Shown in pieces: positions 2,999 to 43,539 of a stretch of DNA of 64,000 nucleotides (position 1 is its first letter; each line of letters begins with the position of its first letter). The position numbers were made by a program, and so were the translations under genes. The notes under the pieces were generated by a model, which was not told the origin of the DNA, made no database searches, and worked only from the letters and a program-made list of their open reading frames with translations. Origin of the DNA: a virus; the IMG/VR virus record IMGVR_UViG_3300031576_000016, positions 29,579-93,578 of that record. One strand, given 5' to 3'.

Positions 2999-3517
2999 AT
3001 GGCACTACCAACTGAACTCACCGACATACTTCGCGTCTTGGTCAATGACGCTGATTCGACTTCTTACACGGACGCAATTCTGGAAAAGACGCTCGCTGTA
3101 GCGGCTCGCCAGGTCACCGTCGAGATGGACTTCACTCAAGACTTCAAGATTACCATCGGCACGACGCCGGCTATCGCGCCGGACCCAACAGACGATGCTG
3201 GTGGAACACGCGACGACTCATTCATCAACCTCGCGACTCTCAAGGCGGCTTGCATCATGGACCAGGGGGCCGCGCTCCTGGCTGCGAAGCAAGCCATCGC
3301 GGTCGGCGACGGCTCATCGAAGATTGACTTGCGCGAACGCGCAGCGTGGTTGCTCAAGCTGCTGGAAAAAGGCTGGTGTGCAGCCTTCGAGAACGCCAAG
3401 CTCGAATATAAGTCCGGGCAGGTACAGGTTGCTGGAGCGGCCGTCATGACCCCGTTCCGCCTTTACGCGGCTGGCATGTTCGGCGGACGCGATGTCCGCA
3501 GCGTCATGAACTACTAA
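2999..3517 (+). CDS. Head-tail adaptor/connector-like protein
   Basis: ATG 2999 with GGAGGA RBS. LRVLVND..YTD..LE resembles gp6/gp15-type adaptors, and the position after the capsid gene fits. Confidence 0.65.
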   Translation: MALPTELTDILRVLVNDADSTSYTDAILEKTLAVAARQVTVEMDFTQDFKITIGTTPAIAPDPTDDAGGTRDDSFINLATLKAACIMDQGAALLAAKQAIAVGDGSSKIDLRERAAWLLKLLEKGWCAAFENAKLEYKSGQVQVAGAAVMTPFRLYAAGMFGGRDVRSVMNY

Positions 3518-10332: not shown

Positions 10333-13300
10333 ATGGCTGATTTCAACATTGTTGCGAGACTTCAGATTCAGCTTCAAGCTGGGTCTGCGGCGGCTGCGGT
10401 GCAGCAGCTTCAACAGCAGCTGCGCAACGCGAACCTGTCGCTCGCCTTCGGCCTCCAGCCGCAAGCTCTTGGTGGTCTCAACAACCTCAACCAGGGGCTT
10501 CGCGCGACTCAGGCTGCGGCCTCAGCAACCTCCTCCTCTCTGCGCAGTACCACCCAGGTCATCAATGATGGCTCCACGGCCATCGAACGCTTTGGGGCTC
10601 AAGCCGGGCTCGCCGCTCGCCGCTTCATTGCCTTCACCGTAGGCGCGTCTACCATTGTGAAAGTCGCGCAAGCCTTTCGAGAAGGTATTGCGGCCGGTAT
10701 TGATTTCAACCGCACGATGGTGAAGATTGCCCAGGTTGGCGGCGACACCAAGGGGCAGTTGGCTGAGCTTGCGTCAGAAGTGACCAGGCTCTCGACTACC
10801 TGGGGCATCTCGTCCAAAGAGCTTGCTAACGCGGCACTCGTTTTCAAGCAGGCCGGCTTGTCGGCTCAAGAAGTCAAGGGCCATCTTGAGACCCTTGCCC
10901 TCACGGACCTCGCGCCAAACTTCGAGTCGATGGCTCAGACGGCCGAAGGTCAAATCGCCATCTGGCGTCAATTCGGCACCAACGTAGACCAAACGCGCGA
11001 AGCCCTTGGTGCAGCCAACGCGGTTGCCGGCGGCTTTGCCGTTGAGTCGCGCGACCTTATCGAAGCCGTCCGCAAATCCGGCGGTGCGTTCAAGGCAGCT
11101 GGCGGCAGCTTCAACGAGTTCATTTCTCTGTTCACAGCCGTGCGTAGCACGACACGAGAATCGGCCGCTGAAATCGCGACCGGTATGCGGACAATCTTCA
11201 CCCGCATTCAGCGTCCTCAGACTGTTGAGTCGCTCCGCGAACTCGGCGTGAATTTGCGGTACACAGCGGATGAAGCCAAGAATCTTGGTCGTGCCGACCT
11301 CGAAAATCAGTTCGTTGGTCCATATGAAGCCGTGAGCCGCTTGAACGAGGCACTGCGGGACATTCCGACCACGGACCCGCGCTTCTTGCAGGTCATCGAG
11401 CAGCTTGGCGGCTATCGTCAGGTCAGCCGTGTTCTGCCGATGATTCTCCAGTTCAGTGAGGCTCAGAAGGCCCTGAACGTCGCTCAAACCGGCAGCCTGT
11501 CCCTGACAGCGGCAGCCGAGAAGTCTCAGGAATCGCTTGGCCGTCGCTTGAGCCAGGTCAACGAAGAGTTCCTTGGCTTCATGCGAAGCATCGTGGAGAG
11601 CAAGGGTTTCCAGAGCTTTGTGCGGTTCTCCCTGGACCTTGCCAGCGCACTCATCAAGGTCCTGGATGTGGCTCGGCCACTTATCCCGGTCATCACCACG
11701 CTCGCCGCAGTCCGTATCGCACAGAATTTCGGCCAGACGGCCGGCGGCTTCCTCTCGCACTTCATCGGCACGGCCCCGGGCAGCTTCACTCCGAAAAAGG
11801 TTGAACCTGGCGTTCGCTTCGCCAAGGGCGGTTATGTTCCCGGCTCGGGAGCTACCGACTCGGTCGCGGCTCACGTCATGCCGGGCGAACACGTCACCAA
11901 GAAAGATTCGACGCAGTCGGTTGACCGCCGGTATCCTGGCTTCTTGACAGCCATGAACCAGGGGGGCGACATTGGCGTCGAGAACTATTTCCGACATCGT
12001 TTTGCCGATGGCGGCGAAGCCCGCCAAGGGTTCGGCTTTGGTGACACGGTCAAGTCACTTCTCGCGAATAGCGTTCTCGGCCTTGGACTGCTAACAGGCG
12101 TTGATTCCGGTGACGCCTACGAAGTCGCAAAACAGCGAAGTGGCGAACAAGTCGAGCACGTCCAGAAAAGCCTTCAGGAAGACGAGAAGAAGAAGCGCCA
12201 AATCAAGCAAGCTTTCGGCGGCGAGACGCCGCGTCAGCGCTTCGGCTTTGGTGACAGCGTCAAGAAGTGGCTCTCGACCGGAATCTTGGCAGCCGGCTCG
12301 CTCGTTGGTGGTCACGGCCTGGACGACCAGGTTTCTGTTGGCCAACAGGAAAAGCGCGACCGCATCGAGAATGTGAAGGAGTCGCTTGAAGAAGAGCTTC
12401 GTCGCAAGAACAAGAAGAAGCCTCAGAAGCTCGGCAAGGGCGGTACGCCCGACCTGGTTGCCGCCGATGGCTCGATGGTTCTGCCTCTCATCGAGAAGCA
12501 CTTCGACGATGTCAAGCAAGACGACCGTGGTCGCTATGTTACAAAACAAAACAATCGCGATGTGTTCTTCGAGTACATGCCAAAAATCAACGCCCTGAAG
12601 ATTGACTTCTTGCAGGACGGCATCGGCGACTTCAAGCACACGAACAAGTCTCTCCAGAAGGGCACACTGTCCTTCCTGCGCAATCTCCAGGGCGTTGCCA
12701 AATCTGCTGGCCAAAAGGTATTCGGCATTGTTGCGGCGGGCTCGGAACAAAAGCGCTCGAAGATTTACAAAGAGGGTCTTGAAAAGCTCGGCTTTGTCGC
12801 AGACGACACGTGGTCGGAATACTACAAGAAAGCCGCCTTCGGCGGCGAGATGCGGCTGGCCAAGGGCGGCGATGACATCTTCAGCAAGTTGCCGAAGTAT
12901 CCAAAAGAGGATGAGTCTGAGCTTCCGCCACAATACGGCAACCCAATCAATGAGTTCATACAGAAGAAAACTGGCCTAAGTAAGAAAGAGATAACTGCCG
13001 CTGCTCTTGCCGGGAGCGTTGCCGCTAATGGACTCCTAGCTGCCACTAGCATGTGGATTCCAGGTTCGCAGCCGGTTGCTACCGGCATTACTGCTCTTGG
13101 AATCGCTGGTGTCAAGAAGTTACTGAAAAAGCGCCGTGGCTTTGCTGGCGGTCTGGATGTCATGCCAGATGGTCAGCATGAGTCGCTTCGTAATCTGTAC
13201 GACCAGGTCAAGGAATACGCAGAGACGCGATTCAGTGCTCACGCTGGCAGCCCGGAAAGCGACCAGAAGAAGAGCAAGGCAACCATCGCTCACATTCGCC

Positions 13301-16300
13301 GCCTGGCGGCTGCTACACTCAGCAGGAAGGAAGTGTTGCAGCGTATCCCGGCCGGCTCCTCGATTGCTGGCATCGGTGCCTTCGGTGTGGCTATCAAGAC
13401 GCCCGATGGCGACGTGATTCGCGCTCAGGCCGACAAAGCACCGGACCTCGCAAACAAATACGCCGCTGAGATTGGACGCAAGCCGTTCAAGCCTTGGCAG
13501 TACGCAACCGCTCGCCCGCCTATTGATGAAGTGTTGCAGCCGACAGCCACGATGACTGTCAAGAAGGGTGAACGCTCAACGTTCATGGAGCGTCTGCCTT
13601 ATGTGACGCCGCTCACCGAGCTTCCTCACCATCAGCAGGAAGAAGCTCATGAGAAGGCCCAGGCAGAACTGTTGCCGTCGATGGCCAAAAAGGGCTGGAT
13701 GCTTACTGACAAGCACAAGGGCAACCTAGCGGTTGACAAGGCCGGCCGGTTCATCGCGCTTGACCCGGCGACTGCCAAAAAGATGAATGAGGACCAGCAG
13801 TCGCGGCTTCTCAGGATTCTCGCTTCAGACAAAGCGGTTGCTACTGGCCTGCCAGGGGCTCAGGTCGATGAGTCTACGATTCACGACCCGCGTCTGAGTG
13901 TTAGCCCGCCAAGTCCAACAGTGCAGACGCGCGGTCGTAAAAAGTTCGACATCGGCGGCGAAGCCGCTTTGCCGGAAGCAATGAAGTTGTTGCAACAACG
14001 CTTCCAGACTTTCGACGTGTCGCGTATTGCTGAGAACGTGACGTTTCACGACAAGATTCCATCGAAGACTTTCCCAGAGCGTGGCGCGATTGGTAAGTTT
14101 TATCCGGAGACGGATGAAATTGCCCTTTCTCGCCAGTTGAAGTCTCCGCGCCTTCTTGCAAAGACGCTGCTTCATGAATTCGTTCATAGGATTGATTACG
14201 ACGAGGGCACGCAAAAGCGGCATGGCTCTCGCGACAAAAAGTCTGTTCCCGGCAAGTTGGCTGCGCAGCTTCAGCCTGCATGGTCTGAAATGGCGATGCA
14301 GAGATATTTCAAGGGTAAGACCAAGGAACAGTTGACTCCGAAGGAACAAGAGTCGCTGGCATATCTGACGGCTCCACATGAAGTTCTTGCCTACATGGTC
14401 TCGGACGTGGCCACTCGGGACAAGGACCAGGTTCCTGAAGAACATGAAAAGGCTGTGCAGACACTGCTCAGGCGTCACCTACCGGCTCGGCAACCGCAGA
14501 AGTACGAACGTGGCGGATGGGTTGTCCCTGGCGAAGGCAACACTGACTCCTTTCCTGCTGACCTTGCTCAGGGTTCGTATGTCATCCGGAAGTCCTCGGT
14601 TCAAAAGCTCGGCGCGTCCAACATCCTGAAGATGGCAACCGGCGGCACTGTCCCGGCATTGCTCATGCCTGGCGAGGTTGTTATTCCGCCAGGTAAGGCT
14701 CGTCAAATCGGTCGTCACGCTCTGACCGAGATGAACCTTCACGGCCGTATGCCGTTCGCTCAGGGCGGCTTTGTGCGGATGGCAACTGGCGACCAGGTGC
14801 CGAAACAGGAGACTGTCAAGGTCGGCGCGCTACCTGAACGTTTTCAGGATGACGTTGAAAGGATGTTTCGTGGACTTGGTGCCAAGGTTCAGAAGCCACT
14901 GCATGAACTTGAAGTGGTCATTGAGCGGTTCGGCAAGAACATTGTCCGCGTTGTGAAGATTGTCGATGTGGCTGTCACTTCTACCGCGTTGCCAAAATCG
15001 GCAGCTTCTGCTGCTACGACTCCAGCAACCAAGCCACAAACAGTGCCTGCGCTGCAAATAGTCCGGGACCTGAAAGCTCACTTGATTGCTCAGGCTGAGG
15101 CGGGTGGTAAGTCTGGCAAGCTTTCTTCCGAGCAGGTTGAGAAGCGCAAGGCTCGCTATGACAAAATGCTCAGTGAGGAAAATCCAGAACGGTCGCTAGA
15201 AAAGTATGCCAAGTTTCAAACGAAGGCCCCGTCCTTCAGTGGTTACTTGGACAAGCGAGACCGCAAGCAAGCTGCCGAGGACCTGAAGAGCACCATCTAT
15301 ACGTCGTACCTGGAGACTGGCACGACTAGCAAATACAAGAGCGCCAAAACTCCCGAAGAACGTGGTCGCGTGTTAGCTACGGCTGTGCCAAAGTACATTC
15401 GTCAAAATCTTGCCGATTTTGAGGGTGGTACTGAGACTGGTCGCAGCTATGAGACTGCGAAGAAGACTCGTGGCCTAGAGAGTCAATATCAAAAGGCGCT
15501 GAGGACACAGTCGCCAGAAGAAGCTTTGAAGTCGGTTGTTTATCAGGCAACAGCAAAGCGCATCCAGTATGAAGAAAGCTCTCGTCAAAATAAGGGTAAA
15601 GCGCCACGAACCCAAAAAGAGCTTCAAGCTGCAATTGAGGAACGATACCAGACGCGCATGGGCAAGTATGATGCCCACGACTTTGAGGGGCCGGCTGCGG
15701 ATGTGGCTCGCGCAAAACTGTTCGGGCACAAAGACCATATCAAACGCGGTGCCGAGGAAGCTTCTGCACGTACCGGCAAAAGCGTTGACGAAACCAGGGT
15801 CGATAGTCTTGAAGCACTCCATAGTAGCCTTGGCGATAGTTCTCAGGCTGCGGCCATTTATCGTCAGCAACAAACCACCGGTCTCCAAAGCCAACTAAAG
15901 CGCGGTAAAATCAGCCAGGCTACTTTTGAAAAGCGAGTGGCCAAGCTCGATTCTCTAAGCGACGATAAGGCATCGAAACTATTACTGTATACCAGGGATG
16001 GTACGCTGCGCGAGAAGGTTGGCAAGCAGCTTGCTGCCGCCGGCATTACCGCCGGTAAGACTCCTCAAGAGACTCGGGAGAACATTGGTAAACGCCTCCA
16101 GGAAATGAAGGGAGAGTTGGAGGCTGCTAAGCCGACAACGGTTCCCGAAGTTGCCGGTCGCGGCCTCACGCCGGAAGAGAAGCGTAAGCGACTCGTTGAC
16201 CAAGAAGTTCGCGGTGCGACCCTAGAGTCCGACTTGACTCCAAGCAAAGCCGACTTGAAGGAGTTGCGCAAGGACCCGGCCTTTGTAAAACAAGAGAAGC

Positions 16301-19300
16301 AAGACGCTGCACCATCAGCCCCGGAGAAAGCCTGGACTCAGCCAGCAGCCGCCGCCCAGACTGTTGCCCTTCCTACTAAGGTGGACGCGGTCAAAAAGTC
16401 TGTGCCTCGACCGACCGATAGGCAGCAACTTGAACGTCGCCTGAACGAACTCGAAGGCGTGGATGTTCCTTCTGCGCACGAGATGAAGGAAATTGCCGAC
16501 ATCCATCGGCAGTTGAAGAATCAGAAGACACCGGTTCCGCCACAACAACAGACCGGACGTGGCCGCGTTCGCGATACGCTTGCTCCGAGTGACCTACGTG
16601 ACATCCAGGAACAGACAAAGGACCTGGTTGTGCCCGAGGCCGCGATTTCGTCTGCCTCCGATAAGCTCAAGGCAGGGCCTACCGCTCAGGTCGCACGACA
16701 AGAACGCGAAGCTCGCGATAAGAAGCCGTCGCCAATCATTTTGCCTGGTGACCAACCGGCTGGTCCGCCGCGTCCGCTCTTCATTCCTGGTCAGACACAG
16801 GCGCAGCCTGATGCAAAGGTTTTCACAAGCGAAGCTGACTTCCGCCGCAGTCAGCAACCTTCTGCCAAAATTGTTACTGGCGATGAGACTCCGGTTCCAT
16901 CGCTGGTTCAACCGACTCGGGAAGAAGTCAAAAAGTATGGTCGTTCTGCTGCTGGCCCGACTGCGGTTGCAGCAGCAGCTAAACAGCCTCGTGACATTCG
17001 TCGCATTATGGACAAGTTGGCCACTTCCGGTTTGGTTGAAGACTTGGAAGTGCCTGGTAAGGGTGCTGACCCACGAGCCAAGAAGGGGCTTCTTCGTTAT
17101 CTGAAGCAGTATGGCGAAGAGATTGAGAAGGCTGGCAAAGGCACTTTGTCGCGTCGTCTTCAGAAGCTTGCTCGCAAGGCACCAGATTGGCAACCAAGCT
17201 TGCGTGGTATTCTGCCAGCCCCAGAAGAGGACACTACCACGTTTTCGTTCGCTGAGGAAGCGGCTGCCGCCACAAAGTCCAAGCCTCGCCCAAGCAAGAA
17301 GACCAAGGAACTGGACTTGGCGGTTGGCTACAAAGAGCCAAAGGTTGAATTTACGTTCCCTGAAGAAAAAGCGCCGCTGCCGCTTGAAAGCGACGTGAAC
17401 CAAAAGTCGCGGCTGCGCCGTGAGCAGGAAGAGGAAGCCAAGAAGCGGCACAAGAACGCCGTGGATTTGGCATCGCAGCCAAGTCACAAATTGCAGGGGG
17501 ACGCGGCAACTGTCCCGGTCAGTCTGACAAAAGAAGAAATCATCAGTAAGACCGTTAGCGATTTTGCTCCTACGGGCGAACCGAAGGAGCCGGATGTGCC
17601 GGCAAGTCTATTTGATAAGGACAAGAAAAAGAAACAGACTTCTCGCCAAGAACATCTCAAAAAAGAGCGCCAGAGGTTCATCAAAGAAGAGGGCGTAACT
17701 GAAGAAGCGATTGCGTTTCGTGAGCGGATGCTTGACAGCACGAAGTCGCTGGATGAAGCTCGCAAGCTCATAGCCAGTCCCGAGTTTGATGGCCACGAGA
17801 AAATCAATCCTTATTTCGATGTCTACGCTCAAGAGCGTCATGGACAGAAGAAGAAAAGGAAGCCAAAGACTTGCGGCCTTGCTCCGGAACAAAGCTTCTT
17901 TGATAAGCCGACGCCGCAGCCGCGTCCGACCAGTTCGTTGCCGCCTCCTCCTTCGGGCAAGGTGCCTGAGACCTATAGTTTCGCTGGGGACCCGCCGGAG
18001 TCGAAACGGTATCACGTCGAAGGTGACCCTCTGCATCCAGCCCAACAACAGGGCGGTGAGCACCGCTCGCGCGACTTCTACCGCACGTTGTACAACAGCA
18101 CAACGGCTGGCGATACGCTTGGCTATACCAAGAAGACGCGCCGCGAACTCGCAAAAGCCAAGGATGCTCTTGACCAGGCTCGTCTCGATGCTGCCGCTGA
18201 CCCTACCGACGACAATCGGTTGCGTTTCAAAGAAGCTGGGCGGGCTTATGACAAGCTTGAGAAACAAAAGGTAGTCGTCGGCCGACGCGAAGCCGACCCG
18301 TACTACGCTCGTCGATTGCTCGACCAGGCGAAGTCGGAATTGTTGCCGCACGAATACAAGGCGTTCGAGGCAGAGACACGTCGCGTTCACCCGAACCTTG
18401 CTTCGCAGGGCGGCGACCCAACCATCTTGCGTCAGTACAAGGAAGGCAAGAGCGACGACGAAATTCGCGATAACCATTATGGACAAACTGGCAGACGAGT
18501 TGGTCTATTTGGTGGAGCCGCTATCGGTGGGGCTGTTGGCTCATTGTTTGGTCCACTCGGCACCGTTCTTGGCGGCACCATTGGCGCTGCTGTTGGTCAA
18601 AAAATCGCAAAAGCCCTGCCTGGGTCTGCGGCGTTTGAGGAATCATTAGCAGAGAAGGGGACGGGCAACGTCAGTGTCGGTCATATTGCTGAGTACAAAA
18701 CCGACAAGGAGACTGGCCAAAAGCGGCTTATTGGCGGTGACCTTCGCGAAAAAGGCCAAGCTGAACTAACCAAGTATCTGGCTGGTCGCGGTCCTGTCAG
18801 CGATGCAACAAAGCACGCCTTTGAAACTGAGGCCATCGGGCGGGCGGAAGCCCGCGTCAAACGCGAACTGATTTCCGCGCAGGAACGTTGGCTGAAAGCT
18901 GTTCATCCAAATATCTCTGCGACCGAAAAACACAAGTTGGCTCTTGAGCAAGTTGATGCTGCTCTTGCTGGGCAGGCAAAGGTTGTCAAGAGTTCAACAG
19001 GTCGCTATTTGGGCGTTGAAACAGAGCACACGAAGGCGAGCGACCTGGATAAGGCCACAGGCGCTGGTGGTGTTGGTTTCCAATTTCGCTCAGCTAAAGG
19101 TGCTATTGGCGACTGGATGGCCGATAAGTATCGTAGCTTGAAGGCTGGCTACGAAAAGTTCGAGTCGTCTAAAGCTGGTCAAGTGCTGAGTGGCGCGGGC
19201 AGCTTTTTGTCCAGTCAACCGGTTACGTTCTTGGCTCCGCTACTTGGAGGACAAATTGAACAATCGGCCGGCACCGCTGAAAATGCAGTCAAGGCTGGTG

Positions 19301-22300: not shown

Positions 22301-25300
22301 ACCCTAACGCTGGCGGCAATCCTTTCCGTTTTGCAACCGGCGGCACGGTTCCAAATGAACCAAGTCGCGTCTATCGGTCCTATGGCACTGACTCTGTGCC
22401 AGCCATGCTCACCCCTGGCGAGTTCGTGGTTCGGGCCGAAGCTGCGAGTGCCAACCGTGGACTTCTCGAAGCCATCAACCGCTCGAAGGGCGGTAGCGTC
22501 CAATACCACCAACGTGGTGGAGTCGCTTATCTGGCTGATGGTGGTTACGCAGATGATGAGCCGTGGGAAGTCAACGCTTACAACTCGCTGTACCGTCGCC
22601 GAAGCATGATTGGAGCCGGCGTTCTGGCTACCGGTGCTGCTTATCGTTATCGTAGTCAACTTGGCTCTGCTTGGCGAAACACCCTTGGTCGCGTTCCGGG
22701 TTTGAGATGGACAGCCGGGGGAACTCCAGCAGCGGCAGCGGCTCCTACTACTACCGCTTCGCCGCCAACTCCGGTAGTGGAGCCTATGCCAGCATCCGTT
22801 CCGGCCACGCAGCCTCGTCAGGGGCTCCTTGGTCGCGTTCGCGGGTGGTTCGGCGGGACAGCCCCAGCACCTGTTCCTTCTCCTGCTAATACCGGAGCCG
22901 GCTATTTCACGGCACCGGCCGACAATGTCGCGGCTGAGCTTGTTCCATCGCCTGCCCCTGCCGCTCCAGTAGACCCGGCTACCGCTCATACTGAACGTCT
23001 TAGTCGTCTGACTCCAGAAGCTCGTGCTCGCTACCAACGCATTATGGCGACCGAGCCAATCTCGCGTGCTGACGCTTTGGCAAGAGCAGAAGCGTACAAC
23101 CAACGCATTTTGGGTGCTCAGACACGAGGCGCAGAACGTGCTGCTGCTTACGGCCAACAGCAATCGAACTACGGCGCTGCACAACCACGCAATGCTCCGA
23201 CGCAACCTGTGGCCAATGAGCCGCCAGGCTCAAATACGTGGTCGCGTCCAAATCGCGTTATTCCTCGTCCTTCCCCGACCGCCGCTACCACTTCGTCCCC
23301 AGCGGCAGCACCAGGCGCAACCCCAGCGCCTGTTGTTGAGGCTCCTGCTCCGGCTGCGGCTCCCCGCGCAACCGGAGCAGCCTCTACTCGCGTCACGCCA
23401 ACAACCGCAACCGAGCCAGACATCTATCGCTTGGCTCTCCAGGAGACGGCTGGCACACCACGTACTGGCCCAACCATTCGTCAGCTTCAAGCGACGAACG
23501 GAGCGGCTCAGGCTCCTCGTCCGCCTGTTCCGCAGGCAGCAGCGGCAACGCCAACACCAGTTGCACCCGTTCGCACACAGGTGACCGCTGGCCAAGGCAT
23601 GGTAATCACGCTTGGCGCGAGCTTGGCCTGGAACCACCTGGCTCAGCAAGCCGGCTTCAATCAGAATGTCACCGACGCCGGCAACCTTGGCATTCTTGGC
23701 GGCGGCGTGGCATTGTCTACTCCGACCGTTGCTGGTGCTGGTCTGTCAGCAACCGTGGCTGCACCTGCGGCCATCATCGCTGCACCAGTGGCTGGTGTCA
23801 TGGCCGGCAACATCATCGGTCGCAACGAAGACGCGACATCGCTGTTGACGACTGTCGTTCGTAATACGCCGACACCGCTGGCTGTCGCATACCGTGCGGC
23901 CGGCATCGACGAGGATGTGGCTCGCCGAGGCAGTCGCGAATATCAACGCATCTCTTCCAATGTTCACCAGGCACTGACAGTTCCTGGTGGTGATTGGGGA
24001 CAACGCACTGCTGACGCAACTGCAAGCTGGGGTGAAAATGTGCCGGTAGCCGGACACATTGCTTCAGGTGTTGCGACATTTGGTGCTAACACAGGACGTG
24101 TGGTCACCGATGTTGTCACTGGCGTTGGTGCTGAATTGGCAACGCCGGTTGTCAACACGCTGGATGCTGGTGGTTCCTACATTCGTGCCAGCCAACAAGC
24201 GGCCTACACTGATGCTCGCGCAGCGTTCCAGCCATACTTCAGCAAGTATCTGGATGCCATCGAAGCTCGCCAAGATGAGCAGTTGAATGCGGCTGGCGCT
24301 TTGATTCCTTCGCTGAAGAGCGAAGTTGACGCCGCCATCGCTCAGACAGAATACCGCTCAGCGGTGCCGGAAGCTTCTCGCTCGTCGTTCTCCGCGCGTC
24401 TTGGTCGCATCTCGATTGGTAAGCCAACAGAGACCAGCCCAAACATCCTGAGCTTCATCGAAGACACATATGGTCAGGGTCACCTATGGAAGACAAATAA
24501 TGGTGTTCACCTACAAGATGTGATGCGGCAGCATGGCAGTCGCGTCGGCATGGGCGATGATGAAGGCGTTCGTATCGACTTCCAGAACCGCGCGAGTGAG
24601 AATCCGCGAGTCGGACGCGAAGCGATTTTCGCCAAGCTCCGTCAGCGCATCACTCAGCCTCTGGATGGAGCCGAAGGCCCGCGTCCTCGATTCGCTGTCA
24701 TGGACCGTTTGCGTGACGCTTACACTCCGGGCGACAACAACATCCGCACAATGATTGACCGGCTCCGTGGCGAAAGTGCTACCGAGCAAACAGTCCAGAC
24801 GGACCGTCACACGACATTGCTGACACAGGCGACTCAGTTGGACAATGACGAGCAACGCGCGGCATTGTTTGAACAGCCGACTCGGTTGCAGCAGCTACGC
24901 GAAAGTCTCCGGGCTCGTCGCGAAGTAGTGGCGGCTTTGGCAAACATGCCCGCCGACTACCGCAACTTGATGACATGGTACACCACTGGTTCGCCGCCGT
25001 GGATGCAACGCATTCGTCAGTACCAGCAGGCAGCAGTTCTGGCTGGTCTCGACATCGAACGCGACCAAATGCTGACGCCTATCGGCTACGCAGCAGACCG
25101 GTTCTCGAACGAACAGCGCGAACTCATCACCAATGTTCGCCGTGGTCAGATTGCTGAAATTCGCCGTCGTCAGAATGTGGATGCTCGGCTCGCCAATGGC
25201 GACACGCTCACGGCCATCTTGAATGAGGTGCCGGCTGGGTGGAAGTCCATCTACGAACAGTCGATTCGCGAAACAGGCGGCAGCAATGCCGCAGAGACTG

Positions 25301-28300
25301 CTCACCTGACCGAGACAATGGGCGGCGTGGCCGGCGTCTATACTCGCGTTATTGGCGGCAACTTCGAGGGCAACAACTCGGCAGGCCAGCTTGCTTCGGC
25401 CGCGCGTTTGATTCCGGATGATTTCCTACGTGCTCAGCTTTTGCCTGGTGGTCTTGAAGCCGACAACGCATTGTTCTCCTACCGGTCGAGTGACCTTCAG
25501 GATGCGATTGGGGCCGTTCGTCAACGACAGCTTCGCTTGCTACAAGAGGCCGGCGAAATCAATGCGGTTGGCGATGTGCCTCGTCAGCTTCGCAACGAAG
25601 GTGTCATCCCAGGCTTCGCTCCGCTCTCGTCCATTGCTCGTCAGTATCTGACTCCGCAGGCCCTGCCGCTTGATGCGTTCTTGGCCCAGGCCGGCAATTC
25701 GGAAGTGTCGCGTCGGTTCCGTCTGCGTGACGCTAACAACATCAAGCGTGAGAATCGCTCGTTCATGGCGATGCGACTCGACACGGCAGAAATCGCTGCT
25801 GCTCTGAATCCGCAGGCCGCGCCAGCCCCAGCCCCGAATGCAAACGTTCAACTCGCACGCGGCGGCATGGTCTATCTCGCCCAGGGCGGTATGCCTTCGC
25901 CGCTGTTCCAGCCGAGGGGCACGGACACCATCCCGGCAATGTTGTCGAAGGGCGAATTCGTCGTCAACGCAGAAGCAACCAAGCAGCACCTGCCGCTTTT
26001 GGTGCAAATCAACGAGGGTCGTCGCCCATCCTACCGCGAAGACGGCGGGGCTGTTGGTGGAGCTATGTCGGCTGTCGCTGCGACTGCTTCTACGGCCCCA
26101 TCCTCCCCTTCTCTGCTCAGTTCCGGAAACGAAGGCGACACCTATAACTTGGCCTCGATGCCGAGCAATGAACGCTTCTTGCTGACACAGACATTGTCTA
26201 CTCTTGGCAAGCACCAGGTCGGCTCGATTCAAGACGCTGACGCTCGTCTGACGGGTCTCGAACAACGTTCGTCGAGCACCGCAGCCACTCAAGACAACCT
26301 GGCCGACGACCGCATCATTTTCGCGAAACTCGTGGCCGACAACATCGACGCCGGTCACCGCAATGCCGACGTGTTGGTCCGGTCGCAAACTAACCTTCAG
26401 AAACGGTTCTTCCTCCACTTGGGCGGCTCCCAGGACAAGTTCCTTGACAAGTTCGGCATGTCGCTCACTCTGGCTCCGAAGCTCGCGGCCAATGCCGCTC
26501 GCGCGGGTGACACGAACAATGTCTCGATGAAGCTCTTCCGCACCGGCGGCGTCGTTCAGTATTACGCAACCGGTGGTGAAACCAGCATGTTCCAGCCGCG
26601 CGGTTCGGACACAGTTCCGGCCATGTTGAGCCATGGCGAGTTCATCGTCAATGCGGCCTCGACTCGGCACAACCTGGGTCTGTTGCGAAAAATCAACAAC
26701 ACCAAGGGTCCGGTCTATTATGCACGCGGGGGCCTGGTGGGTCCGGCCTACTTCTCTGAGGGTGGTCAGGCAGAACAACCGCAACCGCCGCCGATGCCGG
26801 CCACGCCGTCCGAGCCGATTTACATCGACGAGGCAGGCCCGACTGTGGCTCAGCAGAATGCCGCAGCCGGCATTCAGGAATCTGGCGGCGAAGTTCCACA
26901 AGCCAGCAATGCTGCGGCTACGGCTCCAACTCCTGAGCTTCCGAGTCAGACGCCGTTTGGCGAAGACCCAGACCGCCCAGCAGCGGCCATGTTCCGGTTC
27001 GCGGCCGGAGGGTTCGTCCGTCCACGTTACTTGGCCCAGGGCGGACTTGTCAGCTACTTCGATGGCGGTGGACCTGTGCCGGCTCCGGCCCCAGCGGAAA
27101 GCCCTGAGCAACAACAGACCTTCCAACGATGGCGAGATTACCTGGCTGAGCCGGCGAATCAAACGCCGCCTCAAATCCAGATGTTGGAAGGGTGGTTCAA
27201 TCGCGGCTTCGGTGCCAATGGTTGGGACCGCGCGGCATTGCGTGCTCGCCTGGCCCGAGACGGCAATCGTCTATCTCCACGTTGGCGAGGTTTCTTCCAG
27301 GCATGGTCTGGATGGGTCGGTCGTCAAAACACCGAGCGCGATGCAGCCGCACAAGCTCGTCTGGAAACATTCCGTCGTACCTTGGTGCCGACTGTCGGCG
27401 GCGCGCCAGCCGCGCCTCTGCCGCCCGAACAGGCAGAAGCTCGTTACCAGGCCGAGTATCGTCGTCTCCGCGACATCTGGACTCGTGGCGGCAATCCACT
27501 TCAGGGCAATCTCGAAGGCGACGACGTTGAGGCGTCGGTCAATCAGGAAACAACTGCGGCCATCGCTGCCGGTCGTGCGAATTTCCAGTTCCTCAGTCCG
27601 GAACAGCGTGCTCGCTATCGCATCCTTCGTGAAATGCAAGGTGCCCAGGTTCGCCAGCGCACGGCTCGCGGACAGGCCCTGACGTTCACCGGCGGTCCAA
27701 CAGCTGACAACGCGCAAGGACGCGCTCTTGGCGAAGGCATTACAGGTCAGCAGGCATTCGCAGCGGCTCCTGGCGCTGTGGCCGAAGAGAACCTGTCTCC
27801 GACCGAGCAGGCTGTCCTTGAGGAAGAATATCGCTTCGCGGCTCAGGACCGTTTCAATCGTGAGACCCAAGGTCTGACGACTCTCGAACAGTTGACGCAA
27901 TACTGGCAGCCGCGCGAAGGACAGTCGAGCCCAGCATTCCGCCAGGCGTTCCGCGCGAACTCCAGTCGATACACGCCTCAGCAACGGGCAGAGATTCAGG
28001 CTCAATGGGACTTCTACGACGCCTACCTCGCACGCCGGCCGGCTCTCGAAGCGGCTCAACAGCAAGCGCGCGAACAGCAACGTCAGCAGGAAGCACAGCG
28101 TCAGCGTGAGGCTCAGGAACGCGAGACCGCCAACCAGCGCGTGCAAACGTTCCGCGACCAGCAGGCCGCGCTCGACCAGGAAATTCAGTTCCAGGCTGCC
28201 GTCAATCCGAATGGCGGCTCGGCGAACTTCCTACGTGAACGTCAAGCCGGCGAGCAGTTCAACCAGAACATGCAGCGTTTCAACGCTCGTTGGGGCGAAC

Positions 28301-29208
28301 TCGAAAATCGTGACCGCAACGGCCGCGAAGAACGCGAATGGAATCGGATGCAGGCCCAATGGCGTCAAGTCGAACGCCAGGGTGGTGAAGATGGGGCACG
28401 TCGCTTGTTCGTGGCCCAGAACGCGGCTCAGGCCCATCAGGGCGCGGCCATCCAGAACTTGCAGCGCCGGCAGTTCATTGCCAACGCTCAGCAGCCGTTC
28501 CAGGCATTCGGCTTCTCCCGGCCTGGCATCGAAGGTCAGCGTCAGGCGGATGTCGCCGTGCTCGCCCAGCGTCAAAACTGGAACCAGCAGGTGCTCCTCC
28601 AGGACTTCAACGCTCGCCGGTTGCTTGGACAGCAGCCCGGCTTCCCGGTGCCGGCACGTGCCTTCGCTGAGGGCGGCGTCGTTCCTGGCAGCGGCGTCCA
28701 CGACACTGTGCCTTCCCTGCTCACTCCAGGTGAGTACGTCCTGAATCGCCACGCTGTCCAGCGGATTGGTGTTGGCAACCTCCACAGCATGAACCATTTC
28801 GCAAATGGCGGCTTGGTGGGCGGCGTGAACTACCTGGCCGGCGGCGGACAGGCCACAGGGTCTGGTGTGGGCATCAATCCGGAAGTCGCTCAGGCGTTCA
28901 GTCGCTTCGGTGACACCGTGGTTCAGATGGGCGGCGGCTTCAACGTCTTCAACGCAAGTGTGCAGCAGTTGACCAGTGCGTTTAGTATCTTCGGGGAACG
29001 TTCGTCCAAACTCACCGACGCCCTGAACAACTTCCCGGGCACGCTCAATATCCAAGGACATCAAACGGTGGAACTCATTCTCAACGGAGCCGAAGTTCTC
29101 GCAAGTATGCAAGGGGACTTGCAGGCTCTGGTCCAGGACGCAGTCAAGACGGTCGTTCGCGAACGCCTTGGCGGTATCCTCTCTGATGCCGGCGTGCAAC
29201 TGGAGTAA
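10333..29208 (+). CDS. Giant tail tape measure protein (6291 aa) with embedded cargo domains
   Basis: TP901-type TMP core at about 10650-11550 (DFNRTMVKIAQV...LANAALVFKQAG...AVESRDLIEAVRKSG...IATGMRTIFTRI), glycine zippers, repeated GG..TD[ST]VPAML.PGEF modules, and position between chaperone and tail-tip genes. Confidence 0.9.
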   Translation: MADFNIVARLQIQLQAGSAAAAVQQLQQQLRNANLSLAFGLQPQALGGLNNLNQGLRATQAAASATSSSLRSTTQVINDGSTAIERFGAQAGLAARRFIAFTVGASTIVKVAQAFREGIAAGIDFNRTMVKIAQVGGDTKGQLAELASEVTRLSTTWGISSKELANAALVFKQAGLSAQEVKGHLETLALTDLAPNFESMAQTAEGQIAIWRQFGTNVDQTREALGAANAVAGGFAVESRDLIEAVRKSGGAFKAAGGSFNEFISLFTAVRSTTRESAAEIATGMRTIFTRIQRPQTVESLRELGVNLRYTADEAKNLGRADLENQFVGPYEAVSRLNEALRDIPTTDPRFLQVIEQLGGYRQVSRVLPMILQFSEAQKALNVAQTGSLSLTAAAEKSQESLGRRLSQVNEEFLGFMRSIVESKGFQSFVRFSLDLASALIKVLDVARPLIPVITTLAAVRIAQNFGQTAGGFLSHFIGTAPGSFTPKKVEPGVRFAKGGYVPGSGATDSVAAHVMPGEHVTKKDSTQSVDRRYPGFLTAMNQGGDIGVENYFRHRFADGGEARQGFGFGDTVKSLLANSVLGLGLLTGVDSGDAYEVAKQRSGEQVEHVQKSLQEDEKKKRQIKQAFGGETPRQRFGFGDSVKKWLSTGILAAGSLVGGHGLDDQVSVGQQEKRDRIENVKESLEEELRRKNKKKPQKLGKGGTPDLVAADGSMVLPLIEKHFDDVKQDDRGRYVTKQNNRDVFFEYMPKINALKIDFLQDGIGDFKHTNKSLQKGTLSFLRNLQGVAKSAGQKVFGIVAAGSEQKRSKIYKEGLEKLGFVADDTWSEYYKKAAFGGEMRLAKGGDDIFSKLPKYPKEDESELPPQYGNPINEFIQKKTGLSKKEITAAALAGSVAANGLLAATSMWIPGSQPVATGITALGIAGVKKLLKKRRGFAGGLDVMPDGQHESLRNLYDQVKEYAETRFSAHAGSPESDQKKSKATIAHIRRLAAATLSRKEVLQRIPAGSSIAGIGAFGVAIKTPDGDVIRAQADKAPDLANKYAAEIGRKPFKPWQYATARPPIDEVLQPTATMTVKKGERSTFMERLPYVTPLTELPHHQQEEAHEKAQAELLPSMAKKGWMLTDKHKGNLAVDKAGRFIALDPATAKKMNEDQQSRLLRILASDKAVATGLPGAQVDESTIHDPRLSVSPPSPTVQTRGRKKFDIGGEAALPEAMKLLQQRFQTFDVSRIAENVTFHDKIPSKTFPERGAIGKFYPETDEIALSRQLKSPRLLAKTLLHEFVHRIDYDEGTQKRHGSRDKKSVPGKLAAQLQPAWSEMAMQRYFKGKTKEQLTPKEQESLAYLTAPHEVLAYMVSDVATRDKDQVPEEHEKAVQTLLRRHLPARQPQKYERGGWVVPGEGNTDSFPADLAQGSYVIRKSSVQKLGASNILKMATGGTVPALLMPGEVVIPPGKARQIGRHALTEMNLHGRMPFAQGGFVRMATGDQVPKQETVKVGALPERFQDDVERMFRGLGAKVQKPLHELEVVIERFGKNIVRVVKIVDVAVTSTALPKSAASAATTPATKPQTVPALQIVRDLKAHLIAQAEAGGKSGKLSSEQVEKRKARYDKMLSEENPERSLEKYAKFQTKAPSFSGYLDKRDRKQAAEDLKSTIYTSYLETGTTSKYKSAKTPEERGRVLATAVPKYIRQNLADFEGGTETGRSYETAKKTRGLESQYQKALRTQSPEEALKSVVYQATAKRIQYEESSRQNKGKAPRTQKELQAAIEERYQTRMGKYDAHDFEGPAADVARAKLFGHKDHIKRGAEEASARTGKSVDETRVDSLEALHSSLGDSSQAAAIYRQQQTTGLQSQLKRGKISQATFEKRVAKLDSLSDDKASKLLLYTRDGTLREKVGKQLAAAGITAGKTPQETRENIGKRLQEMKGELEAAKPTTVPEVAGRGLTPEEKRKRLVDQEVRGATLESDLTPSKADLKELRKDPAFVKQEKQDAAPSAPEKAWTQPAAAAQTVALPTKVDAVKKSVPRPTDRQQLERRLNELEGVDVPSAHEMKEIADIHRQLKNQKTPVPPQQQTGRGRVRDTLAPSDLRDIQEQTKDLVVPEAAISSASDKLKAGPTAQVARQEREARDKKPSPIILPGDQPAGPPRPLFIPGQTQAQPDAKVFTSEADFRRSQQPSAKIVTGDETPVPSLVQPTREEVKKYGRSAAGPTAVAAAAKQPRDIRRIMDKLATSGLVEDLEVPGKGADPRAKKGLLRYLKQYGEEIEKAGKGTLSRRLQKLARKAPDWQPSLRGILPAPEEDTTTFSFAEEAAAATKSKPRPSKKTKELDLAVGYKEPKVEFTFPEEKAPLPLESDVNQKSRLRREQEEEAKKRHKNAVDLASQPSHKLQGDAATVPVSLTKEEIISKTVSDFAPTGEPKEPDVPASLFDKDKKKKQTSRQEHLKKERQRFIKEEGVTEEAIAFRERMLDSTKSLDEARKLIASPEFDGHEKINPYFDVYAQERHGQKKKRKPKTCGLAPEQSFFDKPTPQPRPTSSLPPPPSGKVPETYSFAGDPPESKRYHVEGDPLHPAQQQGGEHRSRDFYRTLYNSTTAGDTLGYTKKTRRELAKAKDALDQARLDAAADPTDDNRLRFKEAGRAYDKLEKQKVVVGRREADPYYARRLLDQAKSELLPHEYKAFEAETRRVHPNLASQGGDPTILRQYKEGKSDDEIRDNHYGQTGRRVGLFGGAAIGGAVGSLFGPLGTVLGGTIGAAVGQKIAKALPGSAAFEESLAEKGTGNVSVGHIAEYKTDKETGQKRLIGGDLREKGQAELTKYLAGRGPVSDATKHAFETEAIGRAEARVKRELISAQERWLKAVHPNISATEKHKLALEQVDAALAGQAKVVKSSTGRYLGVETEHTKASDLDKATGAGGVGFQFRSAKGAIGDWMADKYRSLKAGYEKFESSKAGQVLSGAGSFLSSQPVTFLAPLLGGQIEQSAGTAENAVKAGASGEGTYTTRRGIGGAATGAILGATVGSIAGPIGAAVGGAAGALVGFTSAIKDAANEIREVKIGNALTIISDRLTTIANVPVRTLPGGQATADDPLVRSSMADVLRELTTSRNETLDKNISESSGFWRSAGAVFGISNPVDVQGLAARQESADRQQVSQILPQSTQIINRQAEVLLRNNPNIGARDVARRLSTEGLTGQLIPRIAQARRVPLEQYLDELALQVAQVNTRLRAELAQHQAREGQEKVIHTFGRLVLAVQSASDSLVTLRAQAQSMSDVFYGNVTATPVTAHSEALTQLGRQDRGAIRPLETISHVVGDERGNRLLEHGRATDDVARVLPAILARVGSTNPLEPSDFSRQVREQLVSAFGGTPTGGQNAAINTVLSEIQRVGATGGTAQILREMQIDATEFTQKLINPLADPLKKFGQQVAQDLEKAGKEFTENVNEFVRRTRVAGESMDRLAALRVTTARVRAEVTAQQSGRPNDVLSQLSLQTLQSGLQSRQERLTGVVGPAASNPDFIGRQLQTVRARINEATHRQQETFELTGGRGPAYEAAALQLARLKDQAANLQNALKHLADVSERNAAAQEKLGALKQEADARIGLGERYLRADGEEMMRLNRGSLLVNQAYSRPQGQRGLDNLSVEDRRLALDWVGAARGTRLQGFQGSPLADDVHRTLIQESAGGAFNLTAGQQNEMQELQRVLLANAATAEQAQNQLITFQRESAGEFFQNLTQQHEQFFSRLEQTLARDRLFEQQNRLNEVATQQASLQGLNTNRETLQRAGVTNDDQVRNLRSNRGLVSEYMGRVSEVQALRQRSSNPSGAADIFERTYGDRLGSQFSDAGGWGINIGQMGLSSGSIGRLTENVRNTTGFTPEQTQRVISRFLQRSENITGQTGSANTRSAVTANIEEAIRREQALQSQEAQQRLAPLENNLRGRQINVGGLSQAAASGNSNALLQAIDSFDGVSNSFTTLDTRIQNTAASFINLSNSVRTLQTRVDNNNPNAGGNPFRFATGGTVPNEPSRVYRSYGTDSVPAMLTPGEFVVRAEAASANRGLLEAINRSKGGSVQYHQRGGVAYLADGGYADDEPWEVNAYNSLYRRRSMIGAGVLATGAAYRYRSQLGSAWRNTLGRVPGLRWTAGGTPAAAAAPTTTASPPTPVVEPMPASVPATQPRQGLLGRVRGWFGGTAPAPVPSPANTGAGYFTAPADNVAAELVPSPAPAAPVDPATAHTERLSRLTPEARARYQRIMATEPISRADALARAEAYNQRILGAQTRGAERAAAYGQQQSNYGAAQPRNAPTQPVANEPPGSNTWSRPNRVIPRPSPTAATTSSPAAAPGATPAPVVEAPAPAAAPRATGAASTRVTPTTATEPDIYRLALQETAGTPRTGPTIRQLQATNGAAQAPRPPVPQAAAATPTPVAPVRTQVTAGQGMVITLGASLAWNHLAQQAGFNQNVTDAGNLGILGGGVALSTPTVAGAGLSATVAAPAAIIAAPVAGVMAGNIIGRNEDATSLLTTVVRNTPTPLAVAYRAAGIDEDVARRGSREYQRISSNVHQALTVPGGDWGQRTADATASWGENVPVAGHIASGVATFGANTGRVVTDVVTGVGAELATPVVNTLDAGGSYIRASQQAAYTDARAAFQPYFSKYLDAIEARQDEQLNAAGALIPSLKSEVDAAIAQTEYRSAVPEASRSSFSARLGRISIGKPTETSPNILSFIEDTYGQGHLWKTNNGVHLQDVMRQHGSRVGMGDDEGVRIDFQNRASENPRVGREAIFAKLRQRITQPLDGAEGPRPRFAVMDRLRDAYTPGDNNIRTMIDRLRGESATEQTVQTDRHTTLLTQATQLDNDEQRAALFEQPTRLQQLRESLRARREVVAALANMPADYRNLMTWYTTGSPPWMQRIRQYQQAAVLAGLDIERDQMLTPIGYAADRFSNEQRELITNVRRGQIAEIRRRQNVDARLANGDTLTAILNEVPAGWKSIYEQSIRETGGSNAAETAHLTETMGGVAGVYTRVIGGNFEGNNSAGQLASAARLIPDDFLRAQLLPGGLEADNALFSYRSSDLQDAIGAVRQRQLRLLQEAGEINAVGDVPRQLRNEGVIPGFAPLSSIARQYLTPQALPLDAFLAQAGNSEVSRRFRLRDANNIKRENRSFMAMRLDTAEIAAALNPQAAPAPAPNANVQLARGGMVYLAQGGMPSPLFQPRGTDTIPAMLSKGEFVVNAEATKQHLPLLVQINEGRRPSYREDGGAVGGAMSAVAATASTAPSSPSLLSSGNEGDTYNLASMPSNERFLLTQTLSTLGKHQVGSIQDADARLTGLEQRSSSTAATQDNLADDRIIFAKLVADNIDAGHRNADVLVRSQTNLQKRFFLHLGGSQDKFLDKFGMSLTLAPKLAANAARAGDTNNVSMKLFRTGGVVQYYATGGETSMFQPRGSDTVPAMLSHGEFIVNAASTRHNLGLLRKINNTKGPVYYARGGLVGPAYFSEGGQAEQPQPPPMPATPSEPIYIDEAGPTVAQQNAAAGIQESGGEVPQASNAAATAPTPELPSQTPFGEDPDRPAAAMFRFAAGGFVRPRYLAQGGLVSYFDGGGPVPAPAPAESPEQQQTFQRWRDYLAEPANQTPPQIQMLEGWFNRGFGANGWDRAALRARLARDGNRLSPRWRGFFQAWSGWVGRQNTERDAAAQARLETFRRTLVPTVGGAPAAPLPPEQAEARYQAEYRRLRDIWTRGGNPLQGNLEGDDVEASVNQETTAAIAAGRANFQFLSPEQRARYRILREMQGAQVRQRTARGQALTFTGGPTADNAQGRALGEGITGQQAFAAAPGAVAEENLSPTEQAVLEEEYRFAAQDRFNRETQGLTTLEQLTQYWQPREGQSSPAFRQAFRANSSRYTPQQRAEIQAQWDFYDAYLARRPALEAAQQQAREQQRQQEAQRQREAQERETANQRVQTFRDQQAALDQEIQFQAAVNPNGGSANFLRERQAGEQFNQNMQRFNARWGELENRDRNGREEREWNRMQAQWRQVERQGGEDGARRLFVAQNAAQAHQGAAIQNLQRRQFIANAQQPFQAFGFSRPGIEGQRQADVAVLAQRQNWNQQVLLQDFNARRLLGQQPGFPVPARAFAEGGVVPGSGVHDTVPSLLTPGEYVLNRHAVQRIGVGNLHSMNHFANGGLVGGVNYLAGGGQATGSGVGINPEVAQAFSRFGDTVVQMGGGFNVFNASVQQLTSAFSIFGERSSKLTDALNNFPGTLNIQGHQTVELILNGAEVLASMQGDLQALVQDAVKTVVRERLGGILSDAGVQLE
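13153..13944 (+). other. Protein-kinase-like domain inside the TMP
   Basis: GIGAFGVA Gly-rich loop, MERLP hinge, TDKHKGN catalytic loop (DxHxGN), IALDP metal-binding Asp. Confidence 0.7.
13960..14502 (+). other. Zincin-like metallopeptidase domain inside the TMP
   Basis: GKFYP..DEIAL...TLLHEFVHRID (HExxH) with downstream YL..PHEVLA as third-ligand helix. Confidence 0.75.
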
Positions 29209-36222: not shown

Positions 36223-36225
36223 ATT

Positions 36226-36858
36226 ATGTCAGTGCCAATCATTGTCACATATCAGGGCGAGCAACTAGCTCTCCGAAAAATGTTTCAGTTGAATGACGGC
36301 GGCGTTGGTTACGGCGCTGCGTTCTTCCTGATTCGACTGTTCACCAACAACATCGTCCCAACAAAAGACCATATTTGGAGTGATTTTACAGAAGCCGCTT
36401 ATTCTGGCTACGCAATCGAAACATTTGCTCCTGGCAACTTTACGATTCCAGCCACGGTTGACGGCTTGACATTTACTGTAGCTGACAAAGCGATGTTTCA
36501 GCACAATGGCGGTGCCACAGCAGAAGTTGTCTACGGATGGCTCATGGAGTACGCTTGTCCTGGCTACCCAAGCGGAAGTATTGCAACGCCTACTTTTCGG
36601 CACTTGGTTTGTGCCCAACGTTTTGCTGAGCCAAAAACAATGGCTGCCGTCAGCGATATTATCATCGTTGATTTGAAGTATTACGCTTGCATTGCTTGTC
36701 CAGAAGACCCGGAGAGTTACGGCAACCTATCTTCTCTGTCTCGGTCTTCAAGTTCAAGTTCTTCTTCGTCTAGCTCTTCTAGCACTTCGAGTTCTTCTAG
36801 CTCGACTGCTTCTAGTGATTCTTCATCCGCATCGTCGGAATCATCATCGGTTTTGTAA
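36226..36858 (+). CDS. Virion structural protein with C-terminal poly-Ser tail
   Basis: IRLFTNNIVP....FTEAAYSGYA motif seen in tail-associated proteins; the last 40 or so residues are almost all Ser. Confidence 0.65.
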   Translation: MSVPIIVTYQGEQLALRKMFQLNDGGVGYGAAFFLIRLFTNNIVPTKDHIWSDFTEAAYSGYAIETFAPGNFTIPATVDGLTFTVADKAMFQHNGGATAEVVYGWLMEYACPGYPSGSIATPTFRHLVCAQRFAEPKTMAAVSDIIIVDLKYYACIACPEDPESYGNLSSLSRSSSSSSSSSSSSSTSSSSSSTASSDSSSASSESSSVL

Positions 36859-38534: not shown

Positions 38535-38739
38535 CCATGTTGCGAAGGTAACCAGTGCCAACAACTATATGGTTGTGACTTACGTGTTGGTAGACGGTGT
38601 CCTCAAGATGAACCGTTTCACCAGCAACTTTCCCAAGGGCGATTTCAATCGCTCGTTGACCCTGCTCCAGAACAACCTGACAGAGGAACTGGAGAAGGAC
38701 CAGATGAAGGTAAAAAATGATGAGCCGAAGCCTGGATAA
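38524..38739 (+). CDS. Hypothetical protein
   Basis: Overlapping, coupled ORF starting at ATG 38524. Confidence 0.55.
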   Translation: MIRDHVAKVTSANNYMVVTYVLVDGVLKMNRFTSNFPKGDFNRSLTLLQNNLTEELEKDQMKVKNDEPKPG

Positions 38740-39744: not shown

Positions 39745-39745
39745 C

Positions 39746-41018: not shown

Positions 41019-41058
41019 CAAAAGACAAACAATTCCCTTCGGTCGGAAGGGGGGTGCG

Positions 41059-43504: not shown

Positions 43505-43510
43505 CGGTCG

Positions 43511-43525
43511 GTGTATATCCTGGTG
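43511..43525 (+). promoter_or_regulatory. Putative late promoter
   Basis: GTGTATATCCTGGTG upstream of an AAGGAG RBS. Confidence 0.55.
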
Positions 43526-43539
43526 AAAGGAGACCGACC

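Follow-up and report, generated by a model that had tools for sequence, protein, structure and literature searches.

Why would the tape measure protein (TMP) of a phage tail be punctuated, over thousands of residues, by variants of one short di-glycine motif? The question is raised by a 64,000-nucleotide stretch of viral DNA (positions 29,579 to 93,578 of the IMG/VR record IMGVR_UViG_3300031576_000016; hereafter the window), in which a single open frame at 10333-29208 (protein P0001) encodes 6,291 amino acids (aa). All features described below lie on the plus strand of the window, and their coordinates are those of the window. An initial annotation had described the protein as a modular delivery cassette with di-glycine motifs at the borders of its cargo units, to be released by cleavage at GG. 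We find that most of the motifs belong to a larger conserved element, here called the joint module, and that related proteins have exchanged what lies between the joints. It is probable, in our judgment, that the gene encodes a giant TMP of a cassette-built family in uncultured phages, with joints fencing exchangeable cargo; cleavage in this family is something that we infer.

By its signatures the product of this open reading frame (ORF) is a phage tail tape measure protein. It matches Pfam PhageMin_Tail (PF10145; E 8e-24), TIGR01760 (E 2.6e-22; 79.3 bits against a cut-off of 28.8) and nine TMP PHROGs. The N-terminal TMP domain spans aa 110-409 (10660-11559), with TIGR01760 over aa 110-409 and PhageMin_Tail over aa 150-360, and the protein shares 45-47% identity with its relatives over aa 4-525. 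These closer relatives lie on seven IMG/VR contigs; four of their TMPs could be recovered in full, are 4,984-5,097 aa long and share the module layout. Among isolated phages, tblastn with the N terminus retrieved SPbeta-like TMPs only, at 23-28% identity, and tblastn with the core (aa 2950-4080) retrieved no match. The gene takes up 20% of the record, a single viral contig of 93,578 bp (93.6 kb) with an estimated completeness of 61%.

All the di-glycine motifs that the initial annotation had named are present at the positions given, in frame 1 of the ORF, among them FAKGG at 11818, FADGG at 12001, LGKGG at 12430, LAKGG at 12856, FAGG at 13141, FDIGG at 13945, YERGG at 14503, MATGG at 14632, FAQGG at 14755, FATGG at 22330, LADGG at 22531, LARGG and LAQGG at 25852 and 25876, FRTGG and YATGG at 26536 and 26563, YARGG at 26719, FAAGG and LAQGG at 26998 and 27031, FAEGG at 28663, and FANGG at 28798. 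The test against shuffled sequence that it had proposed came out clearly, since the observed counts were reached in none of 2,000 residue shuffles: [FYLM]AxGG occurs 16 times (0.93 expected), [FYLMW]xxGG 30 times (7.6 expected), [FYLMW]x(1-2)GG 44 times (14.6 expected) and GG itself 82 times (49 expected). Most of this signal stems from the repeated joint module. In the cargo region (aa 568-1383) the motif is found 7 times against 2.8 expected, and outside modules it is enriched 3.1-fold across the giant TMP family described below. Motif codons vary between copies within the protein; it is therefore the peptide that is conserved, under selection at the peptide level, and not a DNA repeat.

Alignment around the motifs delimits the joint module, an element of 70-100 residues of which most motifs form the two ends. 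Its edges read [KR]-[FYL]-A-x-G-G-h-V; there follow a variable loop, a core of the form G-x-D-[ST]-V-P-A-M-L-T-P-G-E-F-V-V and a short helix ending in L-L-x-x-I-N, and one to three Y-h-A-x-G-G strokes after the helix close the module. The earlier picture was right about the reality of the motifs but missed both the larger module, which is shared with lambda gpH, and the short tandem arrays in which the motifs stand; such arrays are hard to square with every GG being a cleavage site. No Pfam family covers the module, either in this TMP or in 14 giants that we scanned, where Pfam found only PhageMin_Tail and one EF-hand and left most cargo without a match as well. AlphaFold2 (AF2) models of the monomeric module have no fold (predicted local distance difference test score, pLDDT, 49 from 22 sequences and 61 from 91), and only the core helix is confident; the unstructured GG flanks would suit an exposed linear motif as well as an element that needs the oligomer to fold. 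The literature that we searched describes neither the joint nor TMP polyproteins.

The protein carries six full copies of the module, one GG-only array and a series of bare joints, which lack the core and separate the small units of aa 560-1395. Module 1 (aa 489-567; 11797-12033) runs from RFAKGG through PGEHV to RFADGG, and homology to the relatives stops just past its core. Module 2 is a double copy (aa 1384-1485; 14482-14787) with 52% identity to the relatives, homology restarting exactly at (K)LALGG. Both were detected with the hidden Markov model (HMM) of the module, as were module 3 (aa 3993-4077; 22309-22563; 108.7 bits; modelled by AF2 with the 91-sequence alignment), module 4 (aa 5167-5245; 25831-26067; 100.7 bits) and module 5 (aa 5395-5484; 26515-26784; 122.4 bits; modelled with the 22-sequence alignment). 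The GG-only array (aa 5553-5582; 26989-27078), which reads RFAAGGFVRPRYLAQGGLVSYFDGGG, has no module core and matches the HMM marginally. Module 7 (aa 6104-6178; 28642-28866) ends 113 aa before the C terminus and is the copy that matches lambda gpH 733-799, by phmmer against all PDB sequences (chain 8iyk_H, E 0.0022). The segments between modules are not duplicates of each other, and no hydrophobic segment stands regularly ahead of the internal modules.

The joint is not peculiar to this phage. A profile of the module, searched against 1.84 billion representative proteins, matched 20,479 protein clusters at E<=1e-3, of which 863 remain at the stricter limit of E<=1e-30. The giants, as we call the best 150 of the 20,479 clusters, are TMPs of 1.4-7.9 thousand amino acids (kaa) with between 3 and 10 modules; the first module lies near aa 517, and the last stops about 136 aa (median) before the C terminus. 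Inter-module gaps fall mostly into two groups, of 150-350 aa and of 850-1,250 aa, and a giant resembles a string of bodies the size of a TMP, every one of them closed by a joint. In ordinary TMPs, lambda gpH among them, the module occurs once, about 100-140 residues before the C terminus; it lies near the C termini of other TMP PHROGs, and tblastn located it in the TMPs of 169 isolated-phage records, including Gordonia, E. coli and Corynebacterium phages. The TMP of mycobacteriophage Douge (gp16) has two modules, at 974-1027 and 1410-1459. Two further observations concern the distribution of these elements. The gap peak at 850-1,250 aa is sharp and corresponds roughly to the length of one ordinary TMP, and the gap segments within a protein are not mutually homologous. 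In the Synechococcus phage SynMITS9220M01, a 659-aa protein annotated as hypothetical occupies the gp29 position, directly behind the baseplate hub genes (L101:3044-5023:+). It matches the last module plus end piece of our protein, with 29% identity across 84% of a 192-aa query; this match at the gp29 position of a cyanomyophage indicates that the joint occurs also in tape measures of T4-like myophages.

The initial annotation had asked whether cargo blocks are gained or lost at GG boundaries among related phages, and they are: units have been gained, lost, swapped and reordered at GG. In four relatives the breakpoints lie at joints. Three of them share more than 90% identity as far as PGELVIPR-x-R-F-x-x-G-G, about 20% in an insert of about 190 aa that differs between L009 and L010/L012, and again more than 90% from exactly (K)L-A-L-G-G onward; in the slot that holds this insert, the 6,291-aa TMP has about 870 aa of different cargo. 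The pattern is general. When 50 giants were used as BLAST queries against all 150, the ends of high-scoring segment pairs lay within 5 residues of a motif in 19% of cases (5% for random positions) and within 10 residues in 29% (10%), and their starts were weakly enriched near motifs. Two recurrent families of zincin cassettes always end in [KR]-[FY]-A-x-G-G, and the sequence after this GG differs between proteins. Even the order of units is permuted: the kinase precedes the zincin here and follows it in P0049, the nearest giant (6,288 aa), each unit being bounded by GG in both proteins. The joints are conservation islands at which the homology of relatives stops and starts, and cargo units have been swapped, copied and rearranged as GG-to-GG pieces. 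The modular, GG-punctuated architecture of a cassette carrier that had been proposed for this one protein is therefore real and family-wide. As to the content of exchanged units, the inserts of the relatives (L009:13480-14070:- and L010:13673-14248:-), which lie between modules 1 and 2, have no Pfam match, and each has a D...E-x-K pattern (GMDFIG..KLIETKV; PIDLIG.IPYEVK) reminiscent of PD-(D/E)xK nucleases. P0049 has a further GG-bounded unit after its kinase, at aa ~1150-1250, with the motif HVEEIQSDWHQ.

In the window, the region 12000-14500 consists of such units, and the motifs stand at their borders as had been described. The first two are hydrophobic peptides of about 70 aa (aa 561-630 and 631-704; 12013-12444), with ends made of a basic run plus AFGG and LGKGG; pairwise alignment identifies them as a tandem duplication running from GG to GG. 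A unit of about 134 aa without assigned fold follows between LGKGG and AFGG (aa 705-838; 12445-12846), with no match in Pfam or among the 150 giant TMPs, and then a unit with a hydrophobic segment at aa 887-905 in the hydropathy scan (aa 847-940; 12871-13152), which ends KKRRGFAGG. The next unit (aa 941-1209; 13153-13959; end RKKFDIGG) resembles a protein kinase: its catalytic-loop region matches Pfam ABC1 just above the cut-off (23.2 bits against 22.9; E 4.2e-5), a homologous piece exists in P0049, and its language-model neighbors are a SteC-family kinase (0.95) and Kinase-PolyVal (0.94). The last is a zincin-like unit (aa 1210-1395; 13960-14517; end QKYERGG) with HEFVH at aa 1281 and a weak, below-cut-off match to SprT-like proteins (E 0.013) over the HExxH region. 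HExxH is present in 52 of the 150 giants, in recurrent families, against 0.9 expected (about 58-fold). Domains of the PolyVal and LPD type are hinted at by language-model neighbors only (Kinase-PolyVal, as above, and LPD23, 0.90), with no Pfam hit to these families, and a word-index search with the cargo region, run on proteins of comparable length, yielded nothing beyond the query itself. The bare joints stand after basic runs and before an acidic residue, as in KKKRQIKQAFGG followed by E and RGRKKFDIGG followed by E; NKKKPQKLGKGG is followed by T.

Two known tape measures bear on what the joint may do. Lambda gpH contains the same module at gpH 731-791 (FATGG...HRGEFVFTKEATSRIGVGNL...YATGG, the two outer strokes at 733-737 and 779-783), with a domain i-Evalue of 1e-6 when searched as a one-sequence database (-Z 1) with the HMM built from 717 modules; it lies about 100 aa before the hub-binding C terminus, and the chain is cut close by in a glycine-rich stretch, although gpH has one module, 853 aa and no cargo. 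During this step gpH (which becomes gpH* plus gpHC) sheds a C-terminal piece of about 14 kDa, taken from the "glycine-rich region"; neither where exactly the cut falls nor which enzyme makes it is known (PMC12617516), so that lambda is no proof of the motif itself being the site. We computed that the released piece would have 14.6-12.2 kDa if the cut fell at residues 710-737, just ahead of FATGG or at it. T5 pb2 is cut after R1127 into pb2* and pb2C (PMC10038345), which we placed between FVPR and AEGGMMYPG, two residues before GG. Here too the cut TMP frees a C-terminal, enzyme-bearing fragment, and the site resembles the first stroke of the joint ([KFLR]-A-x-G-G-h-h-Y); PRAxGG is conserved in distant T5-like phages. 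In T5, however, there is a single site, and the cut falls before AxGG and not after GG. The T5 region (PRAEGG...GEHGTEVV) was rejected as a homolog of the joint module: the 717-module HMM scored pb2 1126-1149 at -3.5 bits, and hhalign of five T5-like C termini with 300 modules gave a probability of 0.15%, which leaves a resemblance at the level of the motif.

Precedents for the cargo come from elsewhere. Thermus phage P23-45 gp96 is a giant TMP with a virion RNA polymerase, a published case of a tail-delivered enzyme (PMC10770324); like the present protein, it and P74-26 gp95 (5,002-5,006 aa) combine N-proximal enzyme cargo with a metallopeptidase and membrane domains, but the 717-module HMM finds no joint module in the 5,006-aa TMP of P74-26, and no cassette system has been described for either. 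Polyvalent proteins of phages and conjugative elements (Iyer et al. 2017) are likewise very large proteins of many domains, injected and with shuffled effectors, and zincin metallopeptidases, their commonest hub, occur in about 36% (PMC5512222), compared with 35% of the giant TMPs; tape measures and a conserved junction peptide are absent from that account, and processing there is predicted. Enzyme function is also built into the TMP by the lytic motifs of mycobacteriophage TM4 (Mt3) and T5 pb2 (a muralytic motif), which differ in being single small cell-wall motifs and not exchangeable cassettes fenced by a joint. A parallel in organization is found in the MARTX toxins, secreted bacterial toxins in which a giant carrier with glycine-rich repeats bears interchangeable effector cassettes, freed by autoprocessing between them through a cysteine protease domain that cuts after Leu. 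They have no sequence relation to the TMP, which has no such protease domain.

On the reading that we favor, the TMP would sit as an oligomer in the tail lumen, with cassettes strung between joints that would be structured only in the oligomer or the tube. At infection the whole string would be expelled ahead of the DNA, and the N-proximal cargo would reach the cell beside the DNA end. By analogy with lambda and T5, the chances are about even that the last joint is cut during tail maturation, which would free the hub-bound end piece. That the internal and bare joints are cut too, either while the tail matures or once the protein has been ejected, with the embedded zincin or an enzyme of the host as the agent, is a possibility that we hold more tentatively. 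A number of observations weigh against this scheme. Delivery of the cargo into the cell rests on analogy with T5 pb2C and P23-45 gp96. The motif excess outside the modules of this TMP is modest (21 against 11; reached by 8 of 1,000 shuffles), and 65% of the 150 giants have no HExxH. GG motifs return at intervals of ~9 residues, with two to four of them in each module, and such arrays suggest a structural beta-turn repeat rather than a set of cleavage sites; the module core is moreover far more conserved than a protease site requires. Neither of the two solved structures of module-bearing TMPs, lambda 8iyk and Douge 8zdo, resolves the module, and its oligomeric fold is a guess. Finally, no peptidase is among the 25 Pfam families listed for the 88 ORFs, an absence that is not proof in a record estimated to be 61% complete.

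One alternative takes the polyprotein idea to its end. Every joint, including the bare [FL]xxGG ones, would be a processing site, and the protein a train of membrane peptides, a kinase, a zincin and ruler pieces of ~1,000 aa, cut in the finished tail or after ejection. That one specific peptide, under peptide-level selection, marks all cassette junctions speaks for it, as do the basic runs and acidic residues that flank the bare joints and the exact GG-to-GG duplication of the ~70-aa hydrophobic peptides. The enrichment of zincin motifs mirrors the polyvalent proteins, whose zincins have been proposed to autoprocess (PMC5512222). The T5 cut two residues before GG (PMC10038345) and the lambda cut near its only module point in the same direction, and TMP cleavage has been suggested to be general on the basis of six-fold bodies and three-fold C termini (PMC11972413). 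Yet the attempt to relate T5 to the module failed; GG strokes 8-11 residues apart would release pointless nonapeptides; most giants have no zincin; and no protease gene was recognized in the incomplete record. We consider processing at every joint unlikely, although it deserves to be taken seriously.

It is similarly doubtful that the joint is purely a structural repeat, that is, a knot or plug for oligomerization, or else the place where the tail tube or tail assembly chaperone docks, which would keep a multichain ruler in register, so that the exchange of units would reflect tolerance of insertions and there would be no internal cleavage. The nearly invariant 17-residue core exceeds what a protease site needs, the GG strokes have a regular spacing of ~9 residues, the inter-module gaps of 850-1,250 aa approximate one ordinary TMP, and the lack of a fold in the AF2 monomer is as expected of an element that forms only in an oligomer; an AlphaFold3 trimer of the lambda gpH C-terminal segment (692 to the end) has been reported to plug the channel (PMC12617516). 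A structural role leaves unexplained, however, both the bare, core-less joints that stand after basic runs between small cargo units and the enrichment of zincins, and the lambda cut lies next to the module.

A bolder and, we think, improbable extension is that the joint module is a determinant of TMP maturation, triggered by assembly or ejection and possibly self-catalyzed, common to some 20,000 TMP families including that of lambda. The giants would then be true polyproteins that free membrane peptides and enzymes (kinase, zincin) into the host ahead of the DNA.

The analogy with adenovirus and African swine fever virus (ASFV), on which the initial annotation had drawn for a cut right after Gly-Gly, found no support. 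Proteases of this type, such as ASFV pS273R, are clan-CE cysteine proteases that cut after Gly-Gly at (M/L/I)xGG-X sites, to which the joint motif is loosely similar in having a hydrophobic residue a few positions before GG; conserved cassettes, moreover, do end at GG. But the 93.6-kb record, at its estimated 61% completeness, has no match to PF02902 (Peptidase_C48), PF03412 (C39), PF14464 (Prok-JAB) or PF00877 (NlpC/P60), the TMP has one cysteine, and the T5 cut precedes AxGG, so that a phage clan-CE or other GG-specific protease acting in this way is very improbable. That the motifs are a compositional accident of a Gly/Ala-rich low-complexity protein (Gly 8.8%, Ala 12.7%) is refuted by the residue shuffles and by the conservation of motif position in relatives and in the 150 giants.

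The remainder of the protein alternates between conserved and variable segments. A K/E-rich segment (aa 1486-2719; 14788-18489; Lys 9-11%) is specific to this phage, with no match in relatives or giants. It is followed by a conserved core (aa 2720-3992; 18490-22308), which shares 24-36% identity over ~1,200 aa with relatives and 3.4-kaa giants and includes two glycine-zipper hydrophobic stretches (aa 2728-2747 and 3008-3040), with hints of Gly-zipper families in Pfam. Two variable segments, defined by composition and, for the first, hydropathy, have no match in giants: aa 4078-5166 (22564-25830), with a Pro/Ala-rich part and a hydrophobic stretch at aa 4464-4497, and the Q/R-rich, lysine-free aa 5583-6103 (27079-28641). 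The C-terminal end piece (aa 6179-6291; 28867-29205) shares 44% identity with P0049 and 29-37% with other giants; it is probably the hub-binding end, by analogy with lambda gpH, of which 818-849 binds gpI, and with the Douge TMP, of which 1658-1699 binds the hub. A peculiarity of composition is the near absence of lysine from the last 2,700 residues or so (aa 3583-6225; window 21079-29007), with lysine-free runs of up to 767, 585 and 469 aa and 9-13% Arg, whereas aa 400-2800 have 8.5-11.5% Lys; the sister giant P0049 has no comparable lysine desert, its longest such run being 214 aa.

With 6,291 aa, the protein is longer than the TMP of P74-26, whose tail is the longest known. In P74-26 about 5,000 aa correspond to a tail of nearly 1 um (PMC10034513). 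By this scaling, and provided that the entire chain acts as ruler, the tail would be longer than 1 um. Relatives from metagenomes are up to 7,872 aa long. The gene belongs to a co-directional late block in which ORFs of 489 and 1,845 aa come next; the neighboring genes have no PHROG match and only sub-threshold Pfam matches. Elsewhere the record encodes PhoH and many sugar-nucleotide and glycosyltransferase genes (window 36000-44000 and upstream), among them four ORFs of the GDP-mannose dehydratase/epimerase family, glycosyltransferases of the GT1 and GT2 families and cytidylyltransferases. An identical protein is also listed on a contig of 194,118 bases, compared with 93,578 here, and a longer assembly of this phage may exist.

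The site and manner of the lambda TMP cut have been open since 1974, and a conserved, uncharacterized element not in Pfam is now found beside it. Nature has multiplied this joint into fences for exchangeable cargo, and its role is testable in lambda and in two-module phages such as mycobacteriophage Douge. Were the module a maturation determinant, long-tailed phages would be protein-injection machines. If the delivery of cargo is true, siphophage tails would bring ready-made effectors into the host, and the joints would be natural cargo-insertion points for engineering.

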